From Bdellovibrionota bacterium (GTDB taxonomy: Bacteria; Bdellovibrionota_C; UBA2361; OMII01): a stretch of DNA of 47,039 nucleotides. Each line of letters starts with the position of its first letter. Positions within the stretch are counted from its first letter, which is position 1. Of the stretch, positions 5,093 through 27,703 are shown piece by piece. Position numbers and translations under genes: made by a program. Below the pieces are notes generated by a model, which was not told the DNA's origin, made no database searches, and was given only the letters and a program-made list of their open reading frames with translations. The stretch covers positions 1 through 47,039 of the forward strand of contig JBIJBE010000027.1 in the NCBI GenBank assembly GCA_044345405.1, in the 5' to 3' direction.

Positions 5093-6946
5093 TTACTTCT
5101 CGTATACCGCAATCCGCTCGTTGAACCCTTTCTCCTTCTCCTCGAGCTCACCGGAGGTCGACTCCCACGATTGGACCATCTTCTCCAACTCGGTTTTTAC
5201 AGAGGCGAGCGCTTGGGCGGCCTGTGAAATGCCAACACCATCACTCTTTGAGGAGAGCTTGGCGAGTTTATCCTGATGCGCGGTCACATCTTGTTCAAGT
5301 TGTCCGATGCGCTTTTCAAGACGGGTAACCTCATCCTTGAGAGGTGTAAGCACTCGCGAGCGCTCTTGCAGAAGCTCGGCCTTCTCACGTTTGAAATCTC
5401 GCTCACTCCCGGATGATGGCTTCGATGATTTGTTCGAAGACTTCTTCGGACCGGTATCTTCCTCTTCCCACCCGATACTATCGAGGAACTCGTCGTATGT
5501 TCCCTCGAATACGAACGGAGCGTCACCTTGGAACACGATAAGTCGGTTCGCGGTGCGGCGAAGCATATCCTCGCTGTGGGTTACGATAATGACAGCGCCT
5601 TCAAATGTCTCAAGCGCGTCGGTCATCGCCATCACGGACTCAACGTCCAAGTGGTTCGTAGGCTCGTCGAGAAGAAGGACGTTACTTGGGGACGCCAAAA
5701 TCTTGCCGAGCAGAACTCGACTTCGCTCTCCTCCGGAGAGGACCGAGATCTTTTTGAGCGCATCGTCACCTTCGAACATCATGCACCCGCAGATCGCTCG
5801 AACCGCCGTGCGGCTCAGCAACTGGTTCACCTGCTGAATCTCATTCTCGATGGTGTTCGAGAGGTTTAAGCGATTGGTGTTCGTCTGCGCGAAGAACGAG
5901 AGCTTTGTGTTCGGACTTACCGCGATCTCACCTGAAAGCGGCTTAAGCTCATCAGCGAGCAATTTAAGGAGGGTCGACTTTCCGCGGCCGTTCTTTCCGA
6001 TTACACCGATACGGTCGTCCTTCTTTAAACTAAAGCTGAGGTCGCTCACTAACGGGTGGGCCGAATTGGGATACCCGAAAGAGATGTTTTTTACCTCAAT
6101 TGGAAACCGTCCTGGGAACGGAGAGTGAACGAACTCGAAATCGAGGGTGGCTTCGCTCGTAAGCTCATCGAGCTTCTCGATCTTGGCGAGCTGCTTCACA
6201 CGAGACTGCACGACGGTCGCCTTACTCGCTTTCGCCTTGAAGCGATTAATAAAGGACTCCATACGCTTAATCTCTTTCTCTCGATTAAGCCGAGTGCGCT
6301 CGTACAACTCTTCATCCTCAGAGATACGACTAAAGAGCTTCTCGGAATCGCCCTGAATCTTGCGGATACCGGAACGATAGATGAGCGCGCTGTGCGTACT
6401 CACCTCATCACAGAAGGAGCGGTCATGGGAGATAACGATAATCTCTCCTTCCCACGTACAGAGGAACCGCTCAAGCCAGCGCATCGACACGATGTCGAGG
6501 TAGTTCGTCGGCTCGTCAAGAAGGAGCATGTTCGGCTCAGAGAGGATCAACTTCGCGAGGTTAATTCGGATCTGAAAACCTCCCGAGAGGGAGGTCGGAG
6601 ATACGAAGAGCTCGTCATCGGTAAAACCGAGTCCGTTGAGAACGATCTGCGCCTTGTACCCTTCAGCTACGGGATCTCCGGTAAGCGCTGAGCACGCCTC
6701 CTCATATACCGTTGGATGGGAGAACGAGAGGTGCTGCTTGAGGTACCCGATTCGGTAACCACGAGGGGTACTGACATCGCCCTTATCTGGTGTCTCCTCC
6801 CCAGCGATGATCTTAAGAAGGGTGGACTTGCCACTTCCGTTACGACCGAAGAGCGCGACGCGCTCTCCCGAGTTGACGGTCAAGGTGGCGCCCGTGAACA
6901 ACTCACGCTCACCGAAATGCTTCTCTAAATTGCTGATCTGTAACAT
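5093..6946 (-). CDS. ABC-F family ATP-binding protein (YheS/Uup-like) with C-terminal coiled coil
   Basis: Two ABC domains (GRNGSGKST/LSGG/LLLDEPTN and GKNGRGKST/LSGGE/LLLDEPTNHLD) and no TM segments. Start set at ATG 6946 (MLQISNL). Confidence 0.92.
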   Translation of the reverse strand: MLQISNLEKHFGERELFTGATLTVNSGERVALFGRNGSGKSTLLKIIAGEETPDKGDVSTPRGYRIGYLKQHLSFSHPTVYEEACSALTGDPVAEGYKAQIVLNGLGFTDDELFVSPTSLSGGFQIRINLAKLILSEPNMLLLDEPTNYLDIVSMRWLERFLCTWEGEIIVISHDRSFCDEVSTHSALIYRSGIRKIQGDSEKLFSRISEDEELYERTRLNREKEIKRMESFINRFKAKASKATVVQSRVKQLAKIEKLDELTSEATLDFEFVHSPFPGRFPIEVKNISFGYPNSAHPLVSDLSFSLKKDDRIGVIGKNGRGKSTLLKLLADELKPLSGEIAVSPNTKLSFFAQTNTNRLNLSNTIENEIQQVNQLLSRTAVRAICGCMMFEGDDALKKISVLSGGERSRVLLGKILASPSNVLLLDEPTNHLDVESVMAMTDALETFEGAVIIVTHSEDMLRRTANRLIVFQGDAPFVFEGTYDEFLDSIGWEEEDTGPKKSSNKSSKPSSGSERDFKREKAELLQERSRVLTPLKDEVTRLEKRIGQLEQDVTAHQDKLAKLSSKSDGVGISQAAQALASVKTELEKMVQSWESTSGELEEKEKGFNERIAVYEK

Positions 6947-13794: not shown

Positions 13795-15297
13795 ATGCAC
13801 AATCCCCTTCCCCCTCTCTGGCGCCCCGCTGATAAAGCTCTTCGCGGCGCCGCGTACATCTTGTTTTTGATTCCGGTAGTCGCCTACATCGTGTGCGCCC
13901 TGCAGCGTCTTGGGTCTCCGATCGAACTTGAGTGGATGGAGGGAGGGTCCCTTCAGATGATGCATCGAGTACTCTCCGGCAAACCGTTGTACGCTCCGCC
14001 ATCAGTGGAGTTCGTCCCTTATACCTACACACCTCTTTATTTCTACCTTTCGGCGCTTGTTAGTTTTGTTGTGGGAGCGGATTTTTTTCCGTTACGACTC
14101 GTGTCGTTCACGGCATCTCTGGCCACCTTCTTTTTTATCTTCGCTATAGTCCGACGAGAAGCGGGAAGTACCCTTGCCGGCGTGGCCGCGGCGGGACTCT
14201 TCGCGGGAAGCTACGCCGTCAACGGAAACTGGTTCGACATCGCTCGGATCGATTCACTCTGCGTCGCGTTCATCTTGAGTGGGATATGGTTCGCGTTTGG
14301 GCGGGGGCGCCCGTTCGAACTCATTGTGGGCGGACTCCTTGTAACTCTCGCCTTCTTCACGAAACAGGTCGCACTGGTTATCGCGGGGCCACTCATCGTC
14401 GCGGTGGTAGCCCGACATGGAGCCCGGGGATTGTTCTTTGCGTTCACAACCCTCCTTGCGATCGGGGTCGGATGTGTGGCGATGGAAGCTCTCCACGAAG
14501 GTTGGTTCATGTTTTACGTAATGGAATCGCCTCGAACGCGGTGGCAGAACAACCTCTCCCTGACCCACCTGGCTCGAGCGACCTTCATAGAATTCGCTCC
14601 TCTCTTCATACTACCACTCGCCGCTGCGACCGTCCCGTTATGGAACCTCGCGACACATCCAACCCGCGCAGGAGTATCATTCCTCATCGCACTCAGCGGT
14701 CTCTTTCTCGCGGCGGCGTGGGGGCGTGTAGAGTCGATCAATTTTCTTAACTCATCGATACCGGCCCATCTCGGAATGGCGCTTCTCTTCGGGTTAGCGC
14801 TTAGTGGAATCTCTTCATCCGTTGGTCGTGTGTTCGTTGTCGGCGCCTTCACGCTTCAGCTGTGCATCTTCACGAGCATGCTCGGCCCCCTCGTCCCGCA
14901 CGAGCGTGAACTCGCCAACTACCGCAGCTACACCGAGCTTGTCACCGCGCTCCCGAAACCCACCTATATTCCAGACCAAGGATACGTAACCACGCTCGGA
15001 AGCGAAGGCTCCTTCGCTCATTCAATCGGCATCATGGATCTCATGATGGGAGGATCTGCCCCAATCGTCGCGAAATTCCGACAAGAGATGGAAAGCGCGT
15101 TGGACGCAAAGAAATTTGGAACGATAGTCTGCGACACCGATCTCTTTCCGCGTTGGTTTAAGGAAGCGCTTGAACGCAACTACGAGGTCGATACTTCCGC
15201 CAACCCCCAGGGAGCCTCAACGCCGGTGCTGGGATTCCAACACCGTCCAGTGATGTATACGCGGCGAGCAGCGAAATCTTTACGCCCTCTTTCTTGA
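13795..15297 (+). CDS. ArnT/PMT-like (GT39/GT83, GT-C) membrane glycosyltransferase
   Basis: ELEWMEG, YTYTPLYFYL, RLVSF, WFDIARIDSL, FFTKQ; multiple TM helices. Confidence 0.75.
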   Translation: MHNPLPPLWRPADKALRGAAYILFLIPVVAYIVCALQRLGSPIELEWMEGGSLQMMHRVLSGKPLYAPPSVEFVPYTYTPLYFYLSALVSFVVGADFFPLRLVSFTASLATFFFIFAIVRREAGSTLAGVAAAGLFAGSYAVNGNWFDIARIDSLCVAFILSGIWFAFGRGRPFELIVGGLLVTLAFFTKQVALVIAGPLIVAVVARHGARGLFFAFTTLLAIGVGCVAMEALHEGWFMFYVMESPRTRWQNNLSLTHLARATFIEFAPLFILPLAAATVPLWNLATHPTRAGVSFLIALSGLFLAAAWGRVESINFLNSSIPAHLGMALLFGLALSGISSSVGRVFVVGAFTLQLCIFTSMLGPLVPHERELANYRSYTELVTALPKPTYIPDQGYVTTLGSEGSFAHSIGIMDLMMGGSAPIVAKFRQEMESALDAKKFGTIVCDTDLFPRWFKEALERNYEVDTSANPQGASTPVLGFQHRPVMYTRRAAKSLRPLS

Positions 15298-15366
15298 GGA
15301 AAAGTGAGAACATAGGTGCGAGCACGTTGCTGAAGCGCCCATGCGCGAGAGCCCCTCCCCTCTTGC

Positions 15367-15474
15367 ACACCGTACTTCCTGTACCGACAGATGCCCACTG
15401 CCGCGAACATATAGGCATTTCGCTAAAGACCGAAGTGGAGGACGGGAACTTGTTGCATGTTCTCTGGAAAGTAG
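15367..15474 (+). repeat. Element X, copy 1 (ends truncated)
   Basis: About 108 bp nearly identical to 16451-16558. Confidence 0.9.
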
Positions 15475-15475
15475 C

Positions 15476-15689
15476 GAAAACTCGCGTCAGTCACGACTTT
15501 CCCGACTTTCCTCTTATGCGATCTTTATCCGATCCTAGTCGGGCAGGTTTAATGCTGGTGACAAGCGACAGGTAACGTCTCAAAGCCGCTTCGCGAGATA
15601 AGGAAAACAGTGAGTCTCATCCCGCAAAGAACGCGGCGCTGAAAAAGCAGGAAATCCATGACTGACACGAGTTTACGACACGAGTTTCC
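15476..15689 (+). mobile_element. MITE/REPIN-like element Y, copy 1, with a duplicated right end
   Basis: Begins AAACTCGCGTCAGTCACGACTTTC and ends CATGACTGACACGAGTTT followed by a second GACACGAGTTTCC. Colinear but diverged relative to 16247-16443. Confidence 0.8.
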
Positions 15690-15731
15690 AACCAGAAAGG
15701 CGATCGATTTGCCAACACATACGCACCTCTA

Positions 15732-16247
15732 ATGATTACCGGAGATTTCGGGATTGACTCAAAGGGTCCCGACAGCAATAAAGCTGGCATGCCATCTTAC
15801 ATAATCGTGTCTCGCAATCTGTCGATGCTTTGGGGAATGCTTTTTTCTACCCTCGTACTTTGGTCAATTTTTATTGTCGCTGCACCGCTAGGCTTACTAT
15901 CGGGCACTGCAGTTTTGTTCGGTATGGCGCCCCTTGTAGGGCTTATCGCAGGTCAGCAGAGTATGTTTGCTGGCGTGTTTGGCTTAGTTAGCCTCGTGCT
16001 AGTTGGGGCAGCTTTTATACTTGCGACTCGAATTTTTCGGGCTCCTTTAATCACCGGCGATGAAATTGCAATCCAAGATGTTCAACGATTGATGATCGGT
16101 CGTTTACTTTCTTGGTGGATAACCATACCAGCAAGTATGTTTGCTTTTCTACTGGCTGCGGCCGGTAACAAACTAATCAGCCTGCCATTCTTGGTCATAA
16201 GTATAGGGGCCCTGTTCCTACTAAAGCCGTCAAGGAAAACATCCTAG
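15732..16247 (+). CDS. Hypothetical membrane protein (AT-richer cargo gene between the Y elements)
   Basis: 171-aa ORF with 4-5 hydrophobic segments. Its stop codon overlaps the first base of the Y2 inverted repeat. Confidence 0.7.
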   Translation: MITGDFGIDSKGPDSNKAGMPSYIIVSRNLSMLWGMLFSTLVLWSIFIVAAPLGLLSGTAVLFGMAPLVGLIAGQQSMFAGVFGLVSLVLVGAAFILATRIFRAPLITGDEIAIQDVQRLMIGRLLSWWITIPASMFAFLLAAAGNKLISLPFLVISIGALFLLKPSRKTS

Positions 16248-16443
16248 GAAACTCGTGTCAGTCACGACTTTCTCGACTTTCCGCTTATGCGATCTTTGTC
16301 CGTTCCTAGTCGGGCAGGTTTCTGGTGGCAAGCGACAGGTAACGTGTCAAGCCAGGTTCGCGAGATGGGGAGAACAATGAGTCTCATCCCGCAAAGAACG
16401 CGGCGCTGAAAAAGCAGGAAAGTCATGACTGACACGAGTTTCC
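16247..16443 (+). mobile_element. MITE/REPIN-like element Y, copy 2 (197 bp, 26-bp terminal inverted repeats)
   Basis: GGAAACTCGTGTCAGTCACGACTTTC ... GAAAGTCATGACTGACACGAGTTTCC, 25/26 complementary. Confidence 0.85.
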
Positions 16444-16445
16444 CG

Positions 16446-16568
16446 CTGGTACACCGTACTTCCTGTACCGACAGATGCCCACTGCCGCGAACATATAGGC
16501 ATTTCGCTAAAGACCGAAGTGGAGGACGGGAACTTGTTGCATGTTCTCTGAAAAGTAGGATGTACCAG
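16446..16568 (+). mobile_element. Element X, copy 2 (123 bp, 16-bp imperfect terminal inverted repeats)
   Basis: CTGGTACACCGTACTT ... AAGTAGGATGTACCAG, 14/16 complementary. A further copy of the left end, GGTACACCGTACTT, is at 17556-17569. Confidence 0.8.
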
Positions 16569-16615
16569 TCGATGCCTGTAGCCGGGCAGGAAATTTGATT
16601 AGCCCATCCGGTGGC

Positions 16616-16859
16616 GCTACCCTCCCGGAATAACATTTGTGGTGGGGGTAGAGGACCTCTGACCCCGTAGCGGCCAAACTCGGGCATCGAGTTGGCCGGT
16701 ACGGGAAAGAGGCATTCTGATAGAGGTTTTGTAGCGATGCGTGCTCGACTGAAGCTATCGTGTCTTGTGGCCCTTGAGGATGCCGTTAAGGCGTCTTGAG
16801 GGGCAACAAGACCCTGGGATGGTCCGCGGAAGGTCCGTGGTTCAGAACTGGGAGGTAGC
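16616..16859 (+). ncRNA. Candidate structured RNA / 5' leader of unknown class
   Basis: Hairpins at 16656-16712, 16762-16812 (mismatches mostly G-U on the + strand) and 16824-16840, enclosed by GCTACCCTCCC (16616-16626) pairing with GGGAGGTAGC (16850-16859). Confidence 0.5.
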
Positions 16860-16876
16860 CAACAGAGGGCTCGCCC

Positions 16877-17407
16877 TTGAACAGTAAGAAGAGCAAGATC
16901 AGCCGAACGACAGCATCATCCGAAAACCGCTCTCGCGCGACTCTCCGGTCGGCCATGCGGCTTTCTGGAGTTGCTAGGGGGAATCTCACCCGGAGTAAAG
17001 AGCCTATACGCTCTGAGCAGGAGGCCAAAGACCGCCTGCGGCGTATTTACGGCTCGCTGGTGAAGCCCAGTGAGCTTTCCATCCTCGATCGCTTCGCGAG
17101 CGAGTGGTGGGCGGCGCATAAGGCTCAGCACGAGGAGGAACAACCGAATCAGGGGCGCGCAAGCGAATCCCCCATATCGGTCGCTGACCTCCAGAACGTG
17201 GCGAAGCTCAAGGAAGAGATCCTTTTCTTCCTTGATAACAGACGACACGACCTGGATGCGTTGTCCGATATCGTTGATCTCGTAAACCTAATCGGCGGCT
17301 TGGAGCGTGCGAAACGCGCTCAGGCGGTGCTGGAACAGCTTATCAACCCCCATGACTTCGCAGACGAGTCTGAGGAGTCTAAGGTTCCGACGGCAGCCGC
17401 AAGCTAA
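16877..17407 (+). CDS. Hypothetical protein with basic N-terminus and helical C-terminus
   Basis: 176-aa ORF with host-like codon usage. Start is uncertain (TTG 16877 or ATG 16955). Confidence 0.65.
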   Translation: MNSKKSKISRTTASSENRSRATLRSAMRLSGVARGNLTRSKEPIRSEQEAKDRLRRIYGSLVKPSELSILDRFASEWWAAHKAQHEEEQPNQGRASESPISVADLQNVAKLKEEILFFLDNRRHDLDALSDIVDLVNLIGGLERAKRAQAVLEQLINPHDFADESEESKVPTAAAS

Positions 17408-17646
17408 GTCGAAACAACCTTCATACTTTTTGTACGGGCTTGCAGAATGCCTCTTCACCCCGTACATCTTCTCCTCTCCCTTGCCTCGATCGTCGAGACG
17501 TATCGCGGCATGTAGGAGTCTGGCTCTGCCAGCTGCCGGCTAAGTACCCTCCTCAGGTACACCGTACTTTTCATGCGAAACATACGGGCCCCTCTATGGG
17601 TCGCAACGAGACGAGACGTTCCCCTCGCGGTCAGATGCCCGGGGCG

Positions 17647-19047
17647 TTACTTACCACCCAACGCGCCAGAGAGTGAGCTCTGCTGCTGTTGAAGACGGGA
17701 CATGAGTCCCTCAAGTCGGGCGTATCGCTCTTTGAGACCATCCGCCATTCGCTGAATCTGCTTCTCCGCGTCTGAGATGCGTCTATTGAGGTCGGTGATG
17801 AGGCTCTTATTGTTGTTAATCGAGATGTCGAGGAGTCCGCTGTACCGCGTATACCTATCGACGGTTCCACCGGTCAGCGCCACACTATCGGCGAAGGTCT
17901 GAATGATACTGTTGACGCTTCCGGGCTCAGAGGAAAGAGCCTGCTGAAGCTTTGTCGTATCGAACTTGATCGTTCCATCTCGCTCAGTCGTTATGCCGAG
18001 GTCGGAGAACACTCGAATGAGGGAGCCGCCGGTCGCGGTTGTCGAGGATATTTGGGCGCGAAGGGCTTGAAGCGCTGAGTCGTCCGTTCTCGTCGCCGCG
18101 AGAGGGGCGAAGATGTTCCTCACCTCAGACCCGGACTCCTCTCTGATCACTTGGTTATTTTCGTTGATGAACTTCACCACGTCGTTGAAGGCGGTGACGA
18201 AGTCCTGCATCTTCGCTGTCGTCGTCGCCGCGTCCTCGGCGATCTTGACGGTGGCCGTGCCAGCTGAAGCGAGGTTGAGCGTCACACCGGGAATAACGTC
18301 AGAGACGGAGTTGGTACTTCGAGTAATGGTACCGATACCGCTAATCGAAAGTGATGCGTTACTCGCCGCTGATTCAGAGTACGCGCTTAGGTTGGTTAAG
18401 GAAGCGCCGAGCGCGGTCCTCGCGATCGTGCCTTTTTCGGTACCCTCGTAGCTACCGGAGATAACCACCTTGTATGATGGACTGGTCTCCGTTCCTATGT
18501 TTACGAGCGAGGCTTCGGCTTTTGTCGCGGCGGCGTTAAAGTCAGACACGAACTGACTGATGGTATAGGATCCATTGGTAACTACAACGCTCACCGTTTC
18601 TTGGTAGGTGCCTGTACCAACCGTAAAGGTAACCGTCCGAGCGACGGTCGATTCCGCTCCGGTTAGCGTGCTCTGAAGTGGGCTCGTGCTCGAGGAGTAC
18701 GTTTGATTGAAGCTGTAGGTATGGTTCTTCGCTAAGTTATTGACGGTCACATCGTAGCTACCGTTTGTAGCGGCGTTGGACGCCGTAGCTCCCACTACCG
18801 ACTCCTTACTACTTGAGCCGGTCTTACTTACACCGCCGCCCGAGAGCGACGTGAACTGCTGCAGAGTGGTGCGTAGGGCGTCGAGCTTTTGTCCTAAGTT
18901 CTCGAGAGCGGTGTTCGTTTCCTCAAGCTCTCCTACCTTGGTCTGATTGGGCGTAACGCGAGCAAGACGCGCCGACGCGATCGAGGAGTCGATGATCGCT
19001 TGAGAGTCGATACCGGACGCGATACCAGAGAAGCTTAGTGCTGCCAT
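17647..19047 (-). CDS. fliD: Flagellar filament cap protein (HAP2)
   Basis: N-terminal SFSGIASGIDSQAIID, GSYDVTVNNLAK, TNSVSDVIPGVTLNL, FVTAFNDVV, SDLGITTERDGTIKFD, and a C-terminal coiled coil ERYARLEGLMSRLQQQQSSL. Confidence 0.92.
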   Translation of the reverse strand: MAALSFSGIASGIDSQAIIDSSIASARLARVTPNQTKVGELEETNTALENLGQKLDALRTTLQQFTSLSGGGVSKTGSSSKESVVGATASNAATNGSYDVTVNNLAKNHTYSFNQTYSSSTSPLQSTLTGAESTVARTVTFTVGTGTYQETVSVVVTNGSYTISQFVSDFNAAATKAEASLVNIGTETSPSYKVVISGSYEGTEKGTIARTALGASLTNLSAYSESAASNASLSISGIGTITRSTNSVSDVIPGVTLNLASAGTATVKIAEDAATTTAKMQDFVTAFNDVVKFINENNQVIREESGSEVRNIFAPLAATRTDDSALQALRAQISSTTATGGSLIRVFSDLGITTERDGTIKFDTTKLQQALSSEPGSVNSIIQTFADSVALTGGTVDRYTRYSGLLDISINNNKSLITDLNRRISDAEKQIQRMADGLKERYARLEGLMSRLQQQQSSLSGALGGK

Positions 19048-19145: not shown

Positions 19146-20435
19146 TTACCGCCGTCGTTGGCGGCTTTTTGCCCTTTTTTGAGGGGAAACAACCCCTTGC
19201 AACCAAGAATGCAAGAAGGGATCCAGGTGAGGACAGAGGTCCGAGACCGTGAGGGCTCCCTGCTTGCGCCCTTGCTTGAGGGAATGAGCGATGAGCCGCG
19301 CCAACCCTGGATTGTTGGACCAGACATCAGGGCATACAGACCCATCAAGAGAGACCTGCGAGGCGCCGAGGCCTCTGGCGATGAGGGTGGCGACTATCGA
19401 ATAGACCGCTCTGGGTGAGAGATGCCCTTGAAGGATACGCGCCATTCGAGAGATATGAGTTCCAGGCCCTTGAAGCGCCAACCTCATCGAAGGAACCACC
19501 TCACGTAACGCGCCGGAGTTAACCCAAGCTGTTAGCTTTCGAGCCGTAGGAACCGAGAGCTGCGCGCCCCTCATGATGTTCAGAAACTCCGGTACGGAAA
19601 ACGCGGCGCAAAAGTGATGGAGCGCTCCGAACACGTTCATCGCGTCTCGCTCGTCATCCGAGCTGGCGTTCATCACACACTCCACAAGCGCCATCTCAAG
19701 GGGGGAGCACTCGTCAGCGAAGTCATGCCATTTGTGACGGACGGTATTTTCACGCGCGGAAGATGTCATCCGAGGTGCTTCAGTGGGCCGAGTGGAGCGA
19801 GGCGCCGGGGACGAGCGTTTCTCCTCCAAAAGATCTAATCGACGGGCCGCGCCCTCAAGGGCTTGCGCCAAAGAACGCATCCGCGCACTCGTCATCGACC
19901 GCTTCTTCGCGAGGACGCCGAGATCAAGGGCTAAAAACTGCCGAACAGTGAGGGATTCCTCGAAGGGCGCGCGGGGCGTATCAGCGCCCCAAAAGGTGCC
20001 GAGGGTTAGATCAGCGACACGATCGAGTTCGGGGTGTGCTTTCAGGTGCGCCACCTGATCTCGCAGCTCCAACTCACACTGCACACTATTGAAAGTTGTC
20101 TCACTTGATTCTTCGGCAGGAGCCTCCTCGCTCTCTTCAAAGGCATCGAAGGCTGGATCCGCGGCTTCAGCCACCTCCCCCTCCGCGAGAGCGTGCAGCA
20201 CCGCGATAAGGAGCCGCTCTTGAGCGTCGTCGAGAGTATGGAGGTGAGAGGAGTGCTCATCACCAGCGGCGATGAGCTCTTCAAAGGTCATCTCAGCGAG
20301 GGGACCAAGGGAGGATGCGTCATCTCCGAGCAAGGGGCCAACCTGGATCGATTTTAGAAAGCCAAATCGAGGAGAGGCGGCGAAATCCTTGAGAGCGCTC
20401 TGGAGCTCCGTCCGTTCCTGTTTGTGAGTCGCCAT
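19146..20435 (-). CDS. Hypothetical protein with possible degenerate RNA polymerase alpha-CTD-like repeats
   Basis: 430-codon ORF with an RBS before ATG 20435. LTVRQFLALDLGVLAKKRSMTSARMRSLAQALE resembles the alpha-CTD pattern. Confidence 0.7.
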   Translation of the reverse strand: MATHKQERTELQSALKDFAASPRFGFLKSIQVGPLLGDDASSLGPLAEMTFEELIAAGDEHSSHLHTLDDAQERLLIAVLHALAEGEVAEAADPAFDAFEESEEAPAEESSETTFNSVQCELELRDQVAHLKAHPELDRVADLTLGTFWGADTPRAPFEESLTVRQFLALDLGVLAKKRSMTSARMRSLAQALEGAARRLDLLEEKRSSPAPRSTRPTEAPRMTSSARENTVRHKWHDFADECSPLEMALVECVMNASSDDERDAMNVFGALHHFCAAFSVPEFLNIMRGAQLSVPTARKLTAWVNSGALREVVPSMRLALQGPGTHISRMARILQGHLSPRAVYSIVATLIARGLGASQVSLDGSVCPDVWSNNPGLARLIAHSLKQGRKQGALTVSDLCPHLDPFLHSWLQGVVSPQKRAKSRQRRR

Positions 20436-20581
20436 CCCGATTTCCTCCCCTCTGCCGCGCAAACGCGCACGGCCCCTCGCTTCGTTAGATGCGAGGACGG
20501 AGTTCTAGGAATCGTGGGAGCGGCAGCCTAGAGAACCCCGGTCTCAAGACTTCGTTCGGATAAAAAGGACCTAAGTACCCG

Positions 20582-26395: not shown

Positions 26396-27703
26396 ATGCT
26401 CAGTCGATGGCGCAAATTACCTGTGGTCTTGGTTGACCTACTCCTCTTGTTCGCGTTCCTCTGGTTCTTCCGAATAGACCTAGTGGCTCTCGGCACTGTC
26501 GGAGTAGGAGTTCTTGGGGTTGATAGTGACCAATACCTGTCCTACGTGGGCACTCTCCTAAATCGGCACATCTCTTACGATTCCCCGGTGAGTGAATTTA
26601 CCGAGGCAACCTTAACTCGAACGCCTGGCTATCCTCTGTTTTTAGTTCCGGTAGTCCTTGCGAGCGATATACTTGGTTCGTTCAATCAGTGGCTGGTCAT
26701 CTCGCACGCGGCAGCGTGGTGCTTCGCCGCGATAGTTTTTACTCGAACCGTTGGTCGTGCGCTGGGAGAACGAGCAAGTTTCTTAGTATTCCTTCTTGCC
26801 TGCCTTGTGGTGCGGCCTTTTGCGTTTCAGCTGATGTCAGATTGGCTGGCGGTTATGGTTGCCGCGATAACGTGTTGCCTTTTTTGGTTATTCATTCGAA
26901 CAAAAAAGTCTCTCTGGCTTCTCCTTTCCATATTTTCCGCGTCATGCGCCGTGCTGATACGGCCTGATTACCTCGTTTTGGTCGCTCTAGTGCTCGTAGG
27001 GGCGGTTGTCGTCGCCTGGCGCTCTCCCGCTGCCCAGAGAGGCACGATGCTCTGGGCAGGGCTTGGGGTCATACCTAGTTTAGCTCCTCTCGCTTTTTTG
27101 CTGATAACAAATTGGGAGCGGCACAAACAACTGACTTTGATTCCGCGAGAGGGCCACGTGTACGAGCTTGTTTCCGTTCTCGGGCCCGAGCCTCGCCTAG
27201 ACCTCAGCTTACCCGGAAGGGCGCTCCTTGAGGCTCGTCAAGGACTGCCCAAACAAGCGACAAACCGTGAGATTCTGGAAACGATCACCTTAGAGCCACA
27301 CGCTCTTAACGCCGTGGCCCTAGGAAATTTGGCGCTGATGGAAAGCGCGCATACACGTAGTCATATTTCGTGGATTGAAGCCAACGCCACGCTCGCTGAA
27401 ATCTCCGCGATCTACATACGAACGTATCCCTGGCGATATATCTTCGCGGTCCTCTGTGGAATATCCTCGTTGGTATGGGGACTCCCGGCGTATATAGCGA
27501 TCTGGAGAAGTTACGCGATTAACCCGGGAGGCCTGCCCGCATTTGGCATACTCACGGCATCTTTCCAGGTACTTCACGTGTGCGGTGTCGCGACGGTCCA
27601 TATAATGCACGCGCGGTATTATTTACCGGGGGCCTGCCTCCTTTTGTTAGGCGCTCTTGTCTGCGTCTTTTCCATGATCGGGCCGAGCAAAGAAAATGAG
27701 TAG
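26396..27703 (+). CDS. Polytopic membrane protein, probable GT-C glycosyltransferase
   Basis: DSDQY, RTPGYPLFL, LMSD, VLIRP, HARYYLP; many TM segments. Confidence 0.7.
   Translation: MLSRWRKLPVVLVDLLLLFAFLWFFRIDLVALGTVGVGVLGVDSDQYLSYVGTLLNRHISYDSPVSEFTEATLTRTPGYPLFLVPVVLASDILGSFNQWLVISHAAAWCFAAIVFTRTVGRALGERASFLVFLLACLVVRPFAFQLMSDWLAVMVAAITCCLFWLFIRTKKSLWLLLSIFSASCAVLIRPDYLVLVALVLVGAVVVAWRSPAAQRGTMLWAGLGVIPSLAPLAFLLITNWERHKQLTLIPREGHVYELVSVLGPEPRLDLSLPGRALLEARQGLPKQATNREILETITLEPHALNAVALGNLALMESAHTRSHISWIEANATLAEISAIYIRTYPWRYIFAVLCGISSLVWGLPAYIAIWRSYAINPGGLPAFGILTASFQVLHVCGVATVHIMHARYYLPGACLLLLGALVCVFSMIGPSKENE

Follow-up and report, generated by a model that had tools for sequence, protein, structure and literature searches.

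The locus raises the question of what two complementary segments, one in the leader and one in the trailer of the same small gene, do for that gene. The gene (hereafter gene B) lies on the forward strand at positions 16877–17407 of the window, i.e. the whole 47,039-nucleotide stretch of DNA that was analysed, and has 176 codons when read from a TTG start common to a related genome (G017, below); gene callers start it at the ATG at codon 27, which gives 150 aa. We confirm from the sequence that the 13-mer AAGAGGCATTCTG (16707–16719, hereafter X) is the exact reverse complement of CAGAATGCCTCTT (17443–17455, hereafter X'), as an earlier note on this DNA had stated. The seven-nucleotide extension that it described is also borne out (GTACGGG at 16699–16705 against CCCGTAC at 17459–17465), with an internal loop between the two pairings formed by A on the leader side and CAC on the trailer side. 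The leader arm (16699–16719, + strand) reads GTACGGG, A and then X, and the trailer arm (17443–17465, + strand) reads X', CAC and then CCCGTAC; together they form a 20-of-23 inverted repeat around a 723-bp segment.

The 13-mer occurs only at these two sites in the whole 3,588,130-base (3.59-Mb) assembly, and allowing one mismatch adds three further genome sites, none of which is adjoined by GTACGGG. Complementarity was measured by alignment score (RNAduplex on the entire leader and trailer gave a meaningless long structure). The local inverted-repeat score of the 252-nt leader against the 153-nt trailer is 30, a value reached by 3 of 3000 equally spaced segment pairs of the genome and by 1 of 2000 mononucleotide shuffles of this leader and trailer. 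With ∼40 genes per window, the repeat is only moderately significant at a single locus. It is the homologous loci, rather than the statistics of this genome alone, that make the complementarity convincing.

Intact homologous loci are present in two other species of the genus (G017 and G018, compared here with this genome, G000), and a fourth copy (G001) is decayed. The gene B protein shares 71% identity with that of G000 in G017 and 34% in G018. Conservation and compensatory change around homologues had been proposed as a check, and complementarity is indeed found at equivalent positions in all three intact loci, with scores of 25 in G017 (reached by 7 of 2000 shuffles) and 26 in G018 (2 of 2000). 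G017 keeps both complementary segments; its sole difference from G000 within the pairing, T17455 to C, leaves an uncompensated A–C mismatch at the duplex end. G018 has the same layout and the same positions, yet a different complementary sequence: by hand alignment, 12 of the 13 positions of X differ between G000 and G018, and the partner is altered to match. Around the variable X, the scaffold is constant between lineages, i.e. GTACGG stems, CTTG before X' and either CAC (G000, G017 and G001) or TA (G018) after it. The seventh pair of the trailer stem is G–C in G000 and G017, A–T in G001 and T–A in G018; the decayed G001 copy has lost X and retains the trailer hairpin with this compensated stem. 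As judged from these substitutions, the two homologous loci show that the complementarity is under selection. Because only three loci are intact and two of them are close relatives, the covariation amounts to one independent contrast, and a matched DNA inverted repeat, held so by a protein or a recombinase, would covary alike.

Folding and conservation identify the leader as a structured RNA of ∼245 nt (16630–16876, + strand) that belongs to no Rfam family: leader and trailer have no match at the gathering score, there are no matches at E ≤ 5 in 15200–17700, and the only gathering-level matches in the window are three tRNAs. The minimum free energy (MFE) of the G000 leader is −122.9 kcal/mol (z −5.58, with none of 200 shuffles equally stable), its G018 counterpart has a z of −7.09, and a helix plan is common to the three loci. 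In all three, the sense fold is more stable than the antisense fold by 18–32 kcal/mol (MFE −119.4 versus −89.8 for the G000 leader). Between G000 and G017, identity is 86% in the leader, 82% in the coding sequence and 70% in clpA; the leader evolves more slowly than the silent sites of gene B (pS 0.40, dS 0.57), and comparison of the loci shows it, as far as substitutions tell, to be under purifying selection.

Two parts of this leader are of particular relevance. Hairpin H1 (approximately 16664–16705, + strand) is closed by CCCGTA/TACGGG within a larger helix, and its 3' arm is the GTACGGG of the leader arm; the three intact loci have one and the same closing stem, and the inner helix is altered in G018 and still pairs. 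The domain P2-H3-H4 (16748–16864, + strand) consists of a junction helix around a 23-bp hairpin and a second hairpin. With filters off, a covariance model of this domain (R1, 41 pairs) aligns from end to end with the corresponding domain of G018 (27.2 bits, E 6.5e-8 in 1.1 kb); with default filters, it misses that domain. G018 keeps 38 of the 41 pairs, and 15 of the 41 are changed on both sides relative to G000 and are still paired, versus 1–3 compensated pairs in controls with slid partners. Eight of the 41 pairs in G000 are G–U, and the junction helix differs between G000 and G017 by wobble-type changes only. On the G001 remnant, R1 finds nothing convincing (top match 9.8 bits). A conserved leader peptide was considered and rejected: the 20-codon frame at 16738–16800 has mostly replacements in G017 and no equivalent stop in G018, and no small conserved open reading frame was found in the leader, the frames differing between G000 and G018. 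A role of X as a Shine–Dalgarno mimic was likewise rejected, as X of G018 has no such letters.

The trailer hairpin (17431–17466, + strand) has an 8-bp stem (TGTACGGG/CCCGTACA) and a 20-nt loop, and the fold places the 13-mer inside this loop, in agreement with the loop display that had been described. It is 92% identical to that of G017 and has the stem GUACGG/CCGUAC in common with H1. As neither G000 nor G017 has a U tract here, the hairpin is at most a candidate terminator. A dispersed REP-like hairpin family was rejected: GTACGG...CCGTAC hairpins number six in the genome, versus 7–8 for three control words, and the loop 13-mer is unique. Both partners are unpaired in the local folds, X in a junction or internal loop and X' in the hairpin loop. 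Partition functions of modelled full transcripts, which are unreliable for pairings across 700–900 nt, predict pairing of X with the trailer at probabilities of ∼0.7 in G000, 0.9–1.0 in G017 and 0.74–0.99 in G018. In G000, X (positions 78–90 of the 784 examined) is the sole leader segment predicted to pair with the last 50 nt of the modelled transcript at a probability of at least 0.5; the minimum-energy fold contains no cross pairs, which appear in the ensemble only.

A putative promoter, TTGATT and TACCCT separated by a 17-nt spacer (16595–16623, + strand), precedes the leader. The sole upstream block common to G000, G017 and G018 is TTGATTAG followed by 15 nt and TACNCT, with a variable spacer; a consensus scan does not call this promoter, because just 7 of 12 positions match. 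Support from an RNA library consists of three short contigs of depth 2–6, without strand or ends, for which contaminating DNA is conceivable. One contig joins the leader to the coding sequence (16821–17090), and another runs from the stop codon to 64 nt beyond the hairpin (17380–17530) and could derive from the opposite strand. Within 16400–17700, the RNA-library contigs leave gaps and DNA contigs nowhere span the whole interval, and contigs from DNA run X17 have breaks at 16757/16806 and 17430/17435; these gaps and breaks carry no weight in either direction.

The protein offers few clues. Family members have 136–252 residues, and gene B has a dN/dS of 0.41 versus G017. The product of 176 aa is hydrophilic and predicted to be soluble and helical, with 28 K + R and 27 D + E residues; its earlier description as basic holds for the N-terminal half (pI 10.9) and fails for the C-terminal half (pI 4.5), the whole protein having a pI of 8.2. 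The structure prediction that had been called for (AlphaFold2, mean pLDDT 84.2) yields two three-helix bundles. Pfam and PHROG assign gene B to no family (Pfam none at E ≤ 0.1), Foldseek against the PDB gives no significant match for the model (top E 0.95), and the ESM Atlas gave no usable match. The top VIA-align Z of 6.2 is in the range usual for helical bundles and names no fold; the N-domain has scattered matches (Z 5.4–5.9) to helical domains of TnpB, Cas12f and Fanzor, which are within the helical-bundle background. Gene B belongs to an orphan family that accounts for about a dozen clusters in a set of 1.8 billion representatives.

We put at about one half the probability that the gene B mRNA of this uncultivated lake bacterium carries a 5'/3'-UTR interaction within one molecule, as in hbs or icaR. 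Two results favour a reading at the RNA level, namely the strand-specific conserved structure of the leader and the pairing predicted by whole-transcript folding at all three loci; the mRNA is probably closed on itself, given that the match is preserved in a distant relative whose letters differ. We infer that gene B's own promoter would give rise to an mRNA of ∼850 nt, which would carry the folded 245-nt leader and end in, or bear, the hairpin past the stop codon, so that both parts would be on one transcript. In the cell, the 13-nt single-stranded X, directly 3' of H1, would pair with X' in the trailer loop, and the 3' arm of H1 (GUACGGG) could then swap its partner for the 3' arm of the trailer hairpin (CCCGUAC), which would add seven more pairs. 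The resulting 7 + 13-bp duplex, with its small internal loop, would give the mRNA a closed, circular form. The analogous cases of hbs, icaR and hok lead us to guess that this pairing may set mRNA lifetime or translation, either (i) by hiding or creating a ribonuclease site (RNase III would suit a 20-bp duplex) or (ii) by reshaping the leader once the 3' end is made. The start codon is ∼160 nt downstream of the pairing site, so an influence on translation would need to be indirect. More speculatively, the common stem of H1 and the trailer hairpin may allow the two-domain protein to bind the pair of them and so feed back on its own mRNA. A bolder scheme, which we consider a long shot, is that of a self-contained, horizontally moving RNA–protein module, in which the protein would recognize the two same-stem hairpins, X and X' would be a lineage-specific 'address' joining the RNA ends and the closed particle would be the functional entity; it might serve as an addiction or defence switch, or as an intermediate when the module spreads to palindromic sites, in loose resemblance to a bridge RNA that reads the end of its own element.

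The whole block, from promoter through leader and gene to trailer hairpin, exists as one copy in G000 and is accessory. It sits in different contexts in the three genomes, is missing at this site from the nearest relatives, and at 0.9 kb is the only DNA common to G000 and G017 at the locus, being 82–92% identical between species whose clpA genes are only 70% identical. The G000 copy lies between the arms of an outer inverted repeat (16540–16566 and 17556–17583, no strand assigned, score 27); the left arm is part of a local repeat (D1) and its membership of the module is uncertain. The G017 copy has an unrelated outer inverted repeat (∼70 nt, score 46) and the G018 copy has none (score 16). Downstream of the G017 copy lies a gene that only G017 has (1 of 35 genomes), and no empty site is findable there. 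Searches for further relatives covered several collections. Protein patterns on JGI metagenome contigs returned 83 pattern stretches and no relatives; a scan with the arm pattern returned two stretches, both due to chance and with dissimilar flanks; four scans of viral contigs returned no relatives; tblastn against phage and plasmid sequences gave no match; and a scan of genome contigs returned one locus, of the G017 kind. The pattern CCCGTAGC..GGTACGG has eight matches in 124 genomes of the phylum, versus nine for the reversed control; three of the eight are the known loci, and the other five, when read, are unrelated.

Several other explanations have to be weighed against a contact within one mRNA. 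The 3' hairpin might be freed, or separately transcribed, as a small stable RNA whose loop pairs in trans with new gene B leaders, a feedback in which X and X' would be the specificity determinant as in antisense-controlled plasmid or toxin–antitoxin systems. Complementarity, covariation and loop display would be the same, X varies by lineage on a constant scaffold as specificity loops do, and the hairpin persists in the decayed G001 from which X is lost. We nevertheless regard a trans-acting RNA as possible but unlikely: neither a promoter nor a processing site that could yield a separate RNA was found, a partner in cis, 750 nt along one and the same RNA, is greatly favoured by concentration, and the G001 hairpin may just not have decayed yet. 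The arms could also act as DNA, either as inverted binding sites, the alternative offered in the earlier note, at which the gene B protein or some other factor would bind, or as sites where a site-specific recombinase crosses over and inverts the gene with respect to its promoter; inversion would turn gene B off, because the left arm separates the putative promoter from the gene. An inverted repeat of this quality flanking 723 bp, the mobile or accessory nature of the module and the predicted three-helix bundle of each domain, a frequent shape among DNA binders, are all in keeping with this, and covariation is equally expected when one protein reads both sites. Yet the three intact assemblies have one and the same orientation, the run X17 DNA contigs contain no strand-changing joint (though contigs drop rare forms), there is no recombinase among the 17 window proteins scanned with Pfam (8.5–30.7 kb of the window), and the sites, at about +70 and past the stop codon, are not at operator positions. 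As the motif is found nowhere else in the genome, there is no regulon; DNA binding is unsupported, since the protein has no significant fold match, and the surrounding leader is clearly strand-specific. The DNA alternative is disfavoured on these grounds, and we give it little credence.

The distribution of the block suggests a further explanation, that the arms are repeats at or near the ends of a small mobile element, or form the stem by which a gene-in-hairpin cassette of the 23S rRNA intervening sequence (23S-IVS) type is processed, and serve movement or excision rather than gene control. The spread, the high identity and the different contexts of the block would fit, as would the location of two of the three copies between mutually unrelated outer inverted repeats. 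The left arm, however, is not terminal, because it lies 108 nt inside the block conserved with G017; G000 contains just one copy of the element, genes for a transposase, a reverse transcriptase or a recombinase were not found, the protein falls outside PF05635, the G018 copy lacks an outer inverted repeat, and no empty site with joined flanks was found. An insertion sequence or MITE with terminal inverted repeats was rejected for the same reasons (internal left arm, single copy, no transposase family), and an origin of the arms in movement or excision is quite improbable. The repeat might, lastly, be functionless, a leftover of local duplication in closely related copies. By our own arithmetic, an inverted 13-mer repeat within 800 nt is expected by chance ∼0.5 times per 47-kb window, and G000 and G017 are so close that sequence in common proves little. 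But a different complementary sequence at the same two positions in G018, the compensated hairpin stem of G018 and G001, and a leader more conserved than silent sites make absence of function the most improbable of these explanations.

We compared the favoured reading, a 5'/3'-UTR interaction within the gene B mRNA, with known systems. Only a few bacterial mRNAs are known to have interacting ends, all discovered experimentally, with hbs, icaR and hok-type toxins among them; in hok, the fbi/tac pairing is behind the 3'-end-dependent fold. In the short B. subtilis hbs mRNA, which codes for a small protein, a highly structured 5' UTR is reported to pair over ∼14 bp with the 3' UTR, and this pairing modulates a ribonuclease cut in the leader (Braun, Durand and Condon 2017, PMC5737220). 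Gene B would share with hbs the long-range pairing of a structured 5' UTR with a 3' UTR. It differs in that gene, leader and organism are unrelated, the 3' partner is shown in a hairpin loop, the contact is extendable by strand exchange between same-stem hairpins, and the module is accessory and horizontally spread. For icaR of S. aureus, a 3' UTR is reported that pairs with the 5' UTR of its own mRNA at the Shine–Dalgarno region, in a duplex that is an RNase III substrate (Ruiz de los Mozos et al. 2013, PMC3868564). The 7 + 13-bp duplex of gene B would likewise be long enough for such a substrate, whereas its target is far upstream of the start codon.

The earlier note had likened the locus to 5'–3' fold-back control in type I toxin mRNAs. 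The core idea of a fold-back agrees with the complementarity at all three loci and the covariation in G018; the likeness to type I toxins does not hold, because the product is a hydrophilic, predicted soluble helical protein of 136–252 residues and not a short hydrophobic peptide. In hok/sok and aapA1/IsoA1, the full-length mRNA is held in one 3'-end-dependent fold, the modules are small, self-contained and horizontally spread with long structured leaders, as in gene B, and the toxins are hydrophobic peptides under 50–60 aa, in contrast to gene B (PMC5416894). A further difference is that the pairing in gene B is not at the extreme 5' end, and no antisense RNA gene was identified.

Long-distance pairing around a functional unit also occurs in the processing stems of rRNA operons and in ORF-bearing 23S rRNA intervening sequences, and some such units enclose a gene for a small helical-bundle protein. 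By contrast, the gene B module is outside rRNA and has its own promoter-like element, and its inner arms are 20 nt rather than long stems. It also differs from the 23S-IVS cassette in that outer arms are present in two of three copies only and the protein is not a PF05635 four-helix bundle, an identity rejected by the lack of a Pfam match and by the model of two three-helix bundles. In the IS110 family, the bridge RNA is a structured non-coding RNA 5' of the gene, with a loop complementary to the element end that covaries between elements. Gene B likewise has a structured RNA 5' of the gene and covarying complementarity to its own end, a likeness that serves as a lead only; it has no DEDD/serine recombinase, and in its small, entirely helical protein no catalytic domain was detected.

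In brief, gene B is a candidate case of an mRNA end-to-end interaction backed by comparative evidence alone, in which the partner sequences have been exchanged together in a distant homologue and the two-hairpin, same-stem scaffold has been kept. The analysis also yields an uncatalogued structured leader RNA of ∼245 nt and an orphan protein family. As a unit of <1 kb with a promoter-like element, it would provide a compact model for how 3'-end formation may feed back on a leader, and its spread between species and its position between inverted repeats raise the question of how the module moves.

The leader and trailer of gene B are complementary across the open reading frame: AAGAGGCATTCTG (16707-16719) is the exact reverse complement of CAGAATGCCTCTT (17443-17455), and the match is extended by GTACGGG (16699-16705) and CCCGTAC (17459-17465) past a small internal loop (A in the leader, CAC in the trailer). 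The window sequence agrees here with the earlier note, and folding also upholds its proposal that the trailer copy is displayed in a hairpin loop (i.e. TGTACGGG...CCCGTACA, 17431-17466, + strand, with an 8-bp stem and a 20-nt loop holding the trailer 13-mer). The leader 13-mer (hereafter X) lies directly 3' of a predicted + strand hairpin, H1 (∼16664-16705), closed by CCCGTA/TACGGG. Within the 3,588,130-base assembly, the 13-mer is found at these two sites only; three further sites appear when one mismatch is allowed, none adjoining GTACGGG. When the 252-nt leader is aligned locally with the reverse-complemented trailer (153 nt), the score is 30, which is reached by 3/3000 equally spaced segment pairs of the same genome and by 1/2000 shuffles. 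We calculate that a 13-mer inverted repeat without extension, its arms no more than 800 nt apart, would arise by chance ∼0.5 times in a 47-kb window; it is therefore the extension and, above all, comparative data that carry the case.

Among 124 species genomes of the phylum, the gene B family is present in the window's genome (G000), in G017 and G018 and, as a fragment, in G001; all four belong to one genus (35 genomes). The G017 homologue (71% protein identity, 235 aa) has a duplicated N-terminal module. According to blastn and tblastx, G017 and the window share block 16591-17473 only and their flanks are unrelated; identity is 86% in the leader (294 columns), 82% in the coding part (400 columns) and 92% in the trailer hairpin region (51 columns). 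Both complementary arms are present in G017, and their sole difference, T17455 to C, is uncompensated and leaves a 12-bp core. The G018 homologue is only 34% identical (136 aa), and its locus has the same layout although blastn detects no similarity: TTGATTAG-N15-TACACT precedes a hairpin with a CCCGTA/TACGGG closing stem, GATGAAACACACA comes immediately after this hairpin, and 3' of the stop codon lies the hairpin GTACGGTT-cttgtggtgtttcatcta-AACCGTAC, with a loop complementary to GATGAAACACACA. Aligned by hand position by position, X differs between G000 and G018 at 12 of its 13 positions and its partner has changed in step. The conservation and compensatory change that the earlier note proposed to look for around homologs are thus found, on a comparative basis of three intact loci and one independent contrast. 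Leader–trailer scores are 26 in G018 (reached by 2/2000 shuffles) and 25 in G017 (7/2000). A decayed copy in G001 (locus L015, contig C35, 1400-1660, minus strand), adjoining an alanine racemase gene, has the 5' arm of H1 (CCCCGTAGC) fused, without a gap, to the final 58 codons of a gene resembling that of family protein P0003, with an intact trailer hairpin (GTACGGA-ttggcagagtgactctccac-TCCGTAC) 3' of the remnant. The seventh trailer-stem pair reads G-C, G-C, A-T and T-A over the four trailers and, judged from these sequences, the stem itself covaries. Downstream of its stop codon and ahead of the trailer hairpin, the G018 locus (L003) also contains a strong 13-bp hairpin (1936-1975) without counterpart in G000 or G017.

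The modelled transcripts, of 845, 1026 and 749 nt, run from just past the conserved TACNCT to 8 nt beyond the trailer hairpin. Their partition functions give X a probability of pairing with the trailer of ∼0.7 in G000, 0.9-1.0 in G017 and 0.74-0.99 in G018, with 0, 19 and 16 cross pairs, respectively, in the minimum-energy folds. In G000, the 784 upstream positions contain a single segment, 78-90 (16707-16719), that pairs with the final 50 nt at a probability of 0.5 or more. Leader–trailer pairing is predicted alike in the three loci, such long-range predictions being weak evidence.

The leader itself appears to be a structured, strand-specific RNA. Region 16625-16885 (261 nt) has a minimum free energy of -122.9 kcal/mol (z -5.58; 0/200 shuffles as stable), and the G018 leader fold has a z of -7.09. 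Folded separately, all three leaders share one layout: H1 and X, then a junction helix (P2) that surrounds a 23-bp hairpin (H3) and another hairpin (H4), and last the ribosome-binding region. From the G000 and G017 sequences we built a covariance model of P2-H3-H4 (R1; 117 positions, 41 pairs); with filters off, and only then, it matches the corresponding G018 domain from end to end (27.2 bits; E 6.5e-8 for a 1.1-kb search). In the model-fitted alignment, which is biased towards the model's structure, G018 keeps 38 of the 41 pairs; relative to G000, pairing survives a change on both sides in 15 pairs and a change on one side in 6, a further 17 pairs are the same, and the remaining 3 are lost. 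Sliding the 3' partners by 1-3 columns as a control reduces compensated pairs to 1-3 and paired positions to 13-22. The G000 domain contains eight G-U pairs, and the three P2 changes between G000 and G017 are all of wobble type (U-A to U-G, A-U to G-U and U-G to C-G). In 3/3 loci the sense fold is 18-32 kcal/mol more stable than the antisense fold (-119.4 vs -89.8, -113.8 vs -81.3 and -104.9 vs -86.9), and the G000 and G017 leaders diverge by 14% vs 40% at silent sites of the adjoining gene (pS 0.40). Rfam has no family matching the leader, and for that reason alone we call it undescribed.

Gene B (16877-17407, + strand) comprises 176 codons from a TTG start that, like the preceding RBS-like AGAGGG, is also present in the G017 homologue; gene callers start at the ATG of codon 27, giving 150 aa (P0001). 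Compared with G017, its dN/dS is 0.41 and its dS 0.57, so it is protein-coding. It matches no Pfam family at E<=0.1, and none of the 14 family members scanned matches a PHROG family. A word-indexed search of 5.8 billion proteins matched two clusters; HMMER, run as a full profile search against 1.84 billion representatives, matched 17 proteins at E<=0.001, four of which are long TPR proteins matching through a repeated helix pair. In family members (134-252 residues), an N-terminal module (G-V-x-x-G-N-L...EWW), doubled in some, is connected through a basic linker to a C-terminal module (...LGGL.RA...). The AlphaFold2 model (14-sequence alignment; mean pLDDT 84.2, pTM 0.47) predicts one three-helix bundle at residues 26-88 and another at 102-156, with a linker between them. 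No solved structure matches it above background (best Foldseek E 0.95), and the best VIA-align Z of 6.2 is in a range that the tool reports as common for helical bundles. The basic protein of the earlier note is basic in its N-terminal half (pI 10.9) and acidic in its C-terminal half (pI 4.5; whole protein 8.2).

The module (i.e. putative promoter, leader, gene B and trailer hairpin) is single-copy in G000. It is flanked there by a membrane ORF, which has local repeats, and a convergent fliD, in G017 by a periplasmic-binding-protein gene and an orphan gene, and in G018 by lon and a secreted protein. Because the PMT_2 glycosyltransferase gene and fliD are only ∼100 nt apart in G010 (FliD 83% identical), the 2.35 kb between them at 15298-17646 is extra in G000; G044 (FliD 91%) has 4.7 kb of unrelated DNA in its place, so the fliD 3' flank is a variable spot in the genus. 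G000 and G017 share 70% DNA identity in clpA vs 82-92% in the module, which we read as horizontal transfer. The module is accessory and probably spreads between species.

Two local repeat units in permuted order (15358-15674 and 16249-16558) flank the 171-codon membrane ORF (15732-16247). D1 is 117 nt long (97% identity between copies); D3+D2 is ∼195 nt long (90-93%), its 52-nt ends (16247-16298 and 16392-16443) being inverted relative to each other, and D3/D2 fragments also occur on contigs C21, C40 and C18. By appearance, these units are small MITE-like elements of an accessory islet. GGTACACCGTACTT, the start of D1 (16448-16461), recurs 3' of the module (17556-17569); it occurs three times in the genome, twice in the window, and 15364-15377 lies within an 84% copy (15359-15377). 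At 17556-17587 the copy also folds into a small hairpin with CCGTA/TACGG as its closing stem, the letters found in the stems of the module hairpins. Two further ORFs are without a Pfam family: 19146-20462 (- strand, 438 codons), immediately upstream of fliD and in the same orientation, and 26396-27703 (+ strand, 435 codons).

The promoter is inferred solely from conservation of TTGATTAG-N15-TACNCT in 3/3 loci, and a consensus scan did not call it. The organism was found in lake-water metagenomes (17 DNA runs with at least half of the sampled words), and small parts of its genome in three metatranscriptome runs, each with one contig over the region: 16821-17090 (leader into gene B), 17380-17530 (gene B end, trailer hairpin and 64 nt further) and, in run X20, 16414-16574 (upstream repeat); at depth 2-6, without strand or ends, these may derive from contaminating DNA. 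The X20 contig joins 16574 back to 16414 with four extra letters, which suggests a rearranged or tandem D1 form in another population.

Several explanations other than pairing within one mRNA have to be weighed. A 3'-derived RNA acting in trans through the trailer segment is unlikely. That the arms act as DNA-level sites or for inversion is improbable: fold stability, covariation, strand bias and slow leader divergence favour a + strand RNA over double-stranded DNA sites. DNA contigs of run X17, which can miss rare forms, contain no strand-changing joint. We give even less credence to arms that serve mobility. An imperfect inverted repeat of ∼70 nt (score 46) brackets the entire G017 module in a gene-in-a-hairpin layout (locus L007, contig C50, reverse-complement coordinates 5147-5213 and 6372-6439); this outer arm is not repeated elsewhere in G017 and is not a multi-copy element. 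The G000 module lies between 28-nt arms that belong to the local repeat (score 27), G018 has a 21-nt direct repeat only, and searches of phage, plasmid and viral-contig collections gave no relatives.

The best-supported reading, with a probability of about one half, is that the 5' and 3' UTRs of a single mRNA interact at long range. The closest parallel is hbs, with a structured leader and a 14-bp 5'/3'-UTR interaction (PMC5737220), followed by icaR, in which UTR pairing produces an RNase III substrate (PMC3868564). The suggested likeness to type I toxin mRNAs (PMC5416894) fails on the nature of the gene B product. Pairing of the gene B leader and trailer might control mRNA lifetime, or leader conformation after the 3' end is made, and the gene B protein may bind H1 and the trailer hairpin, which share a stem.
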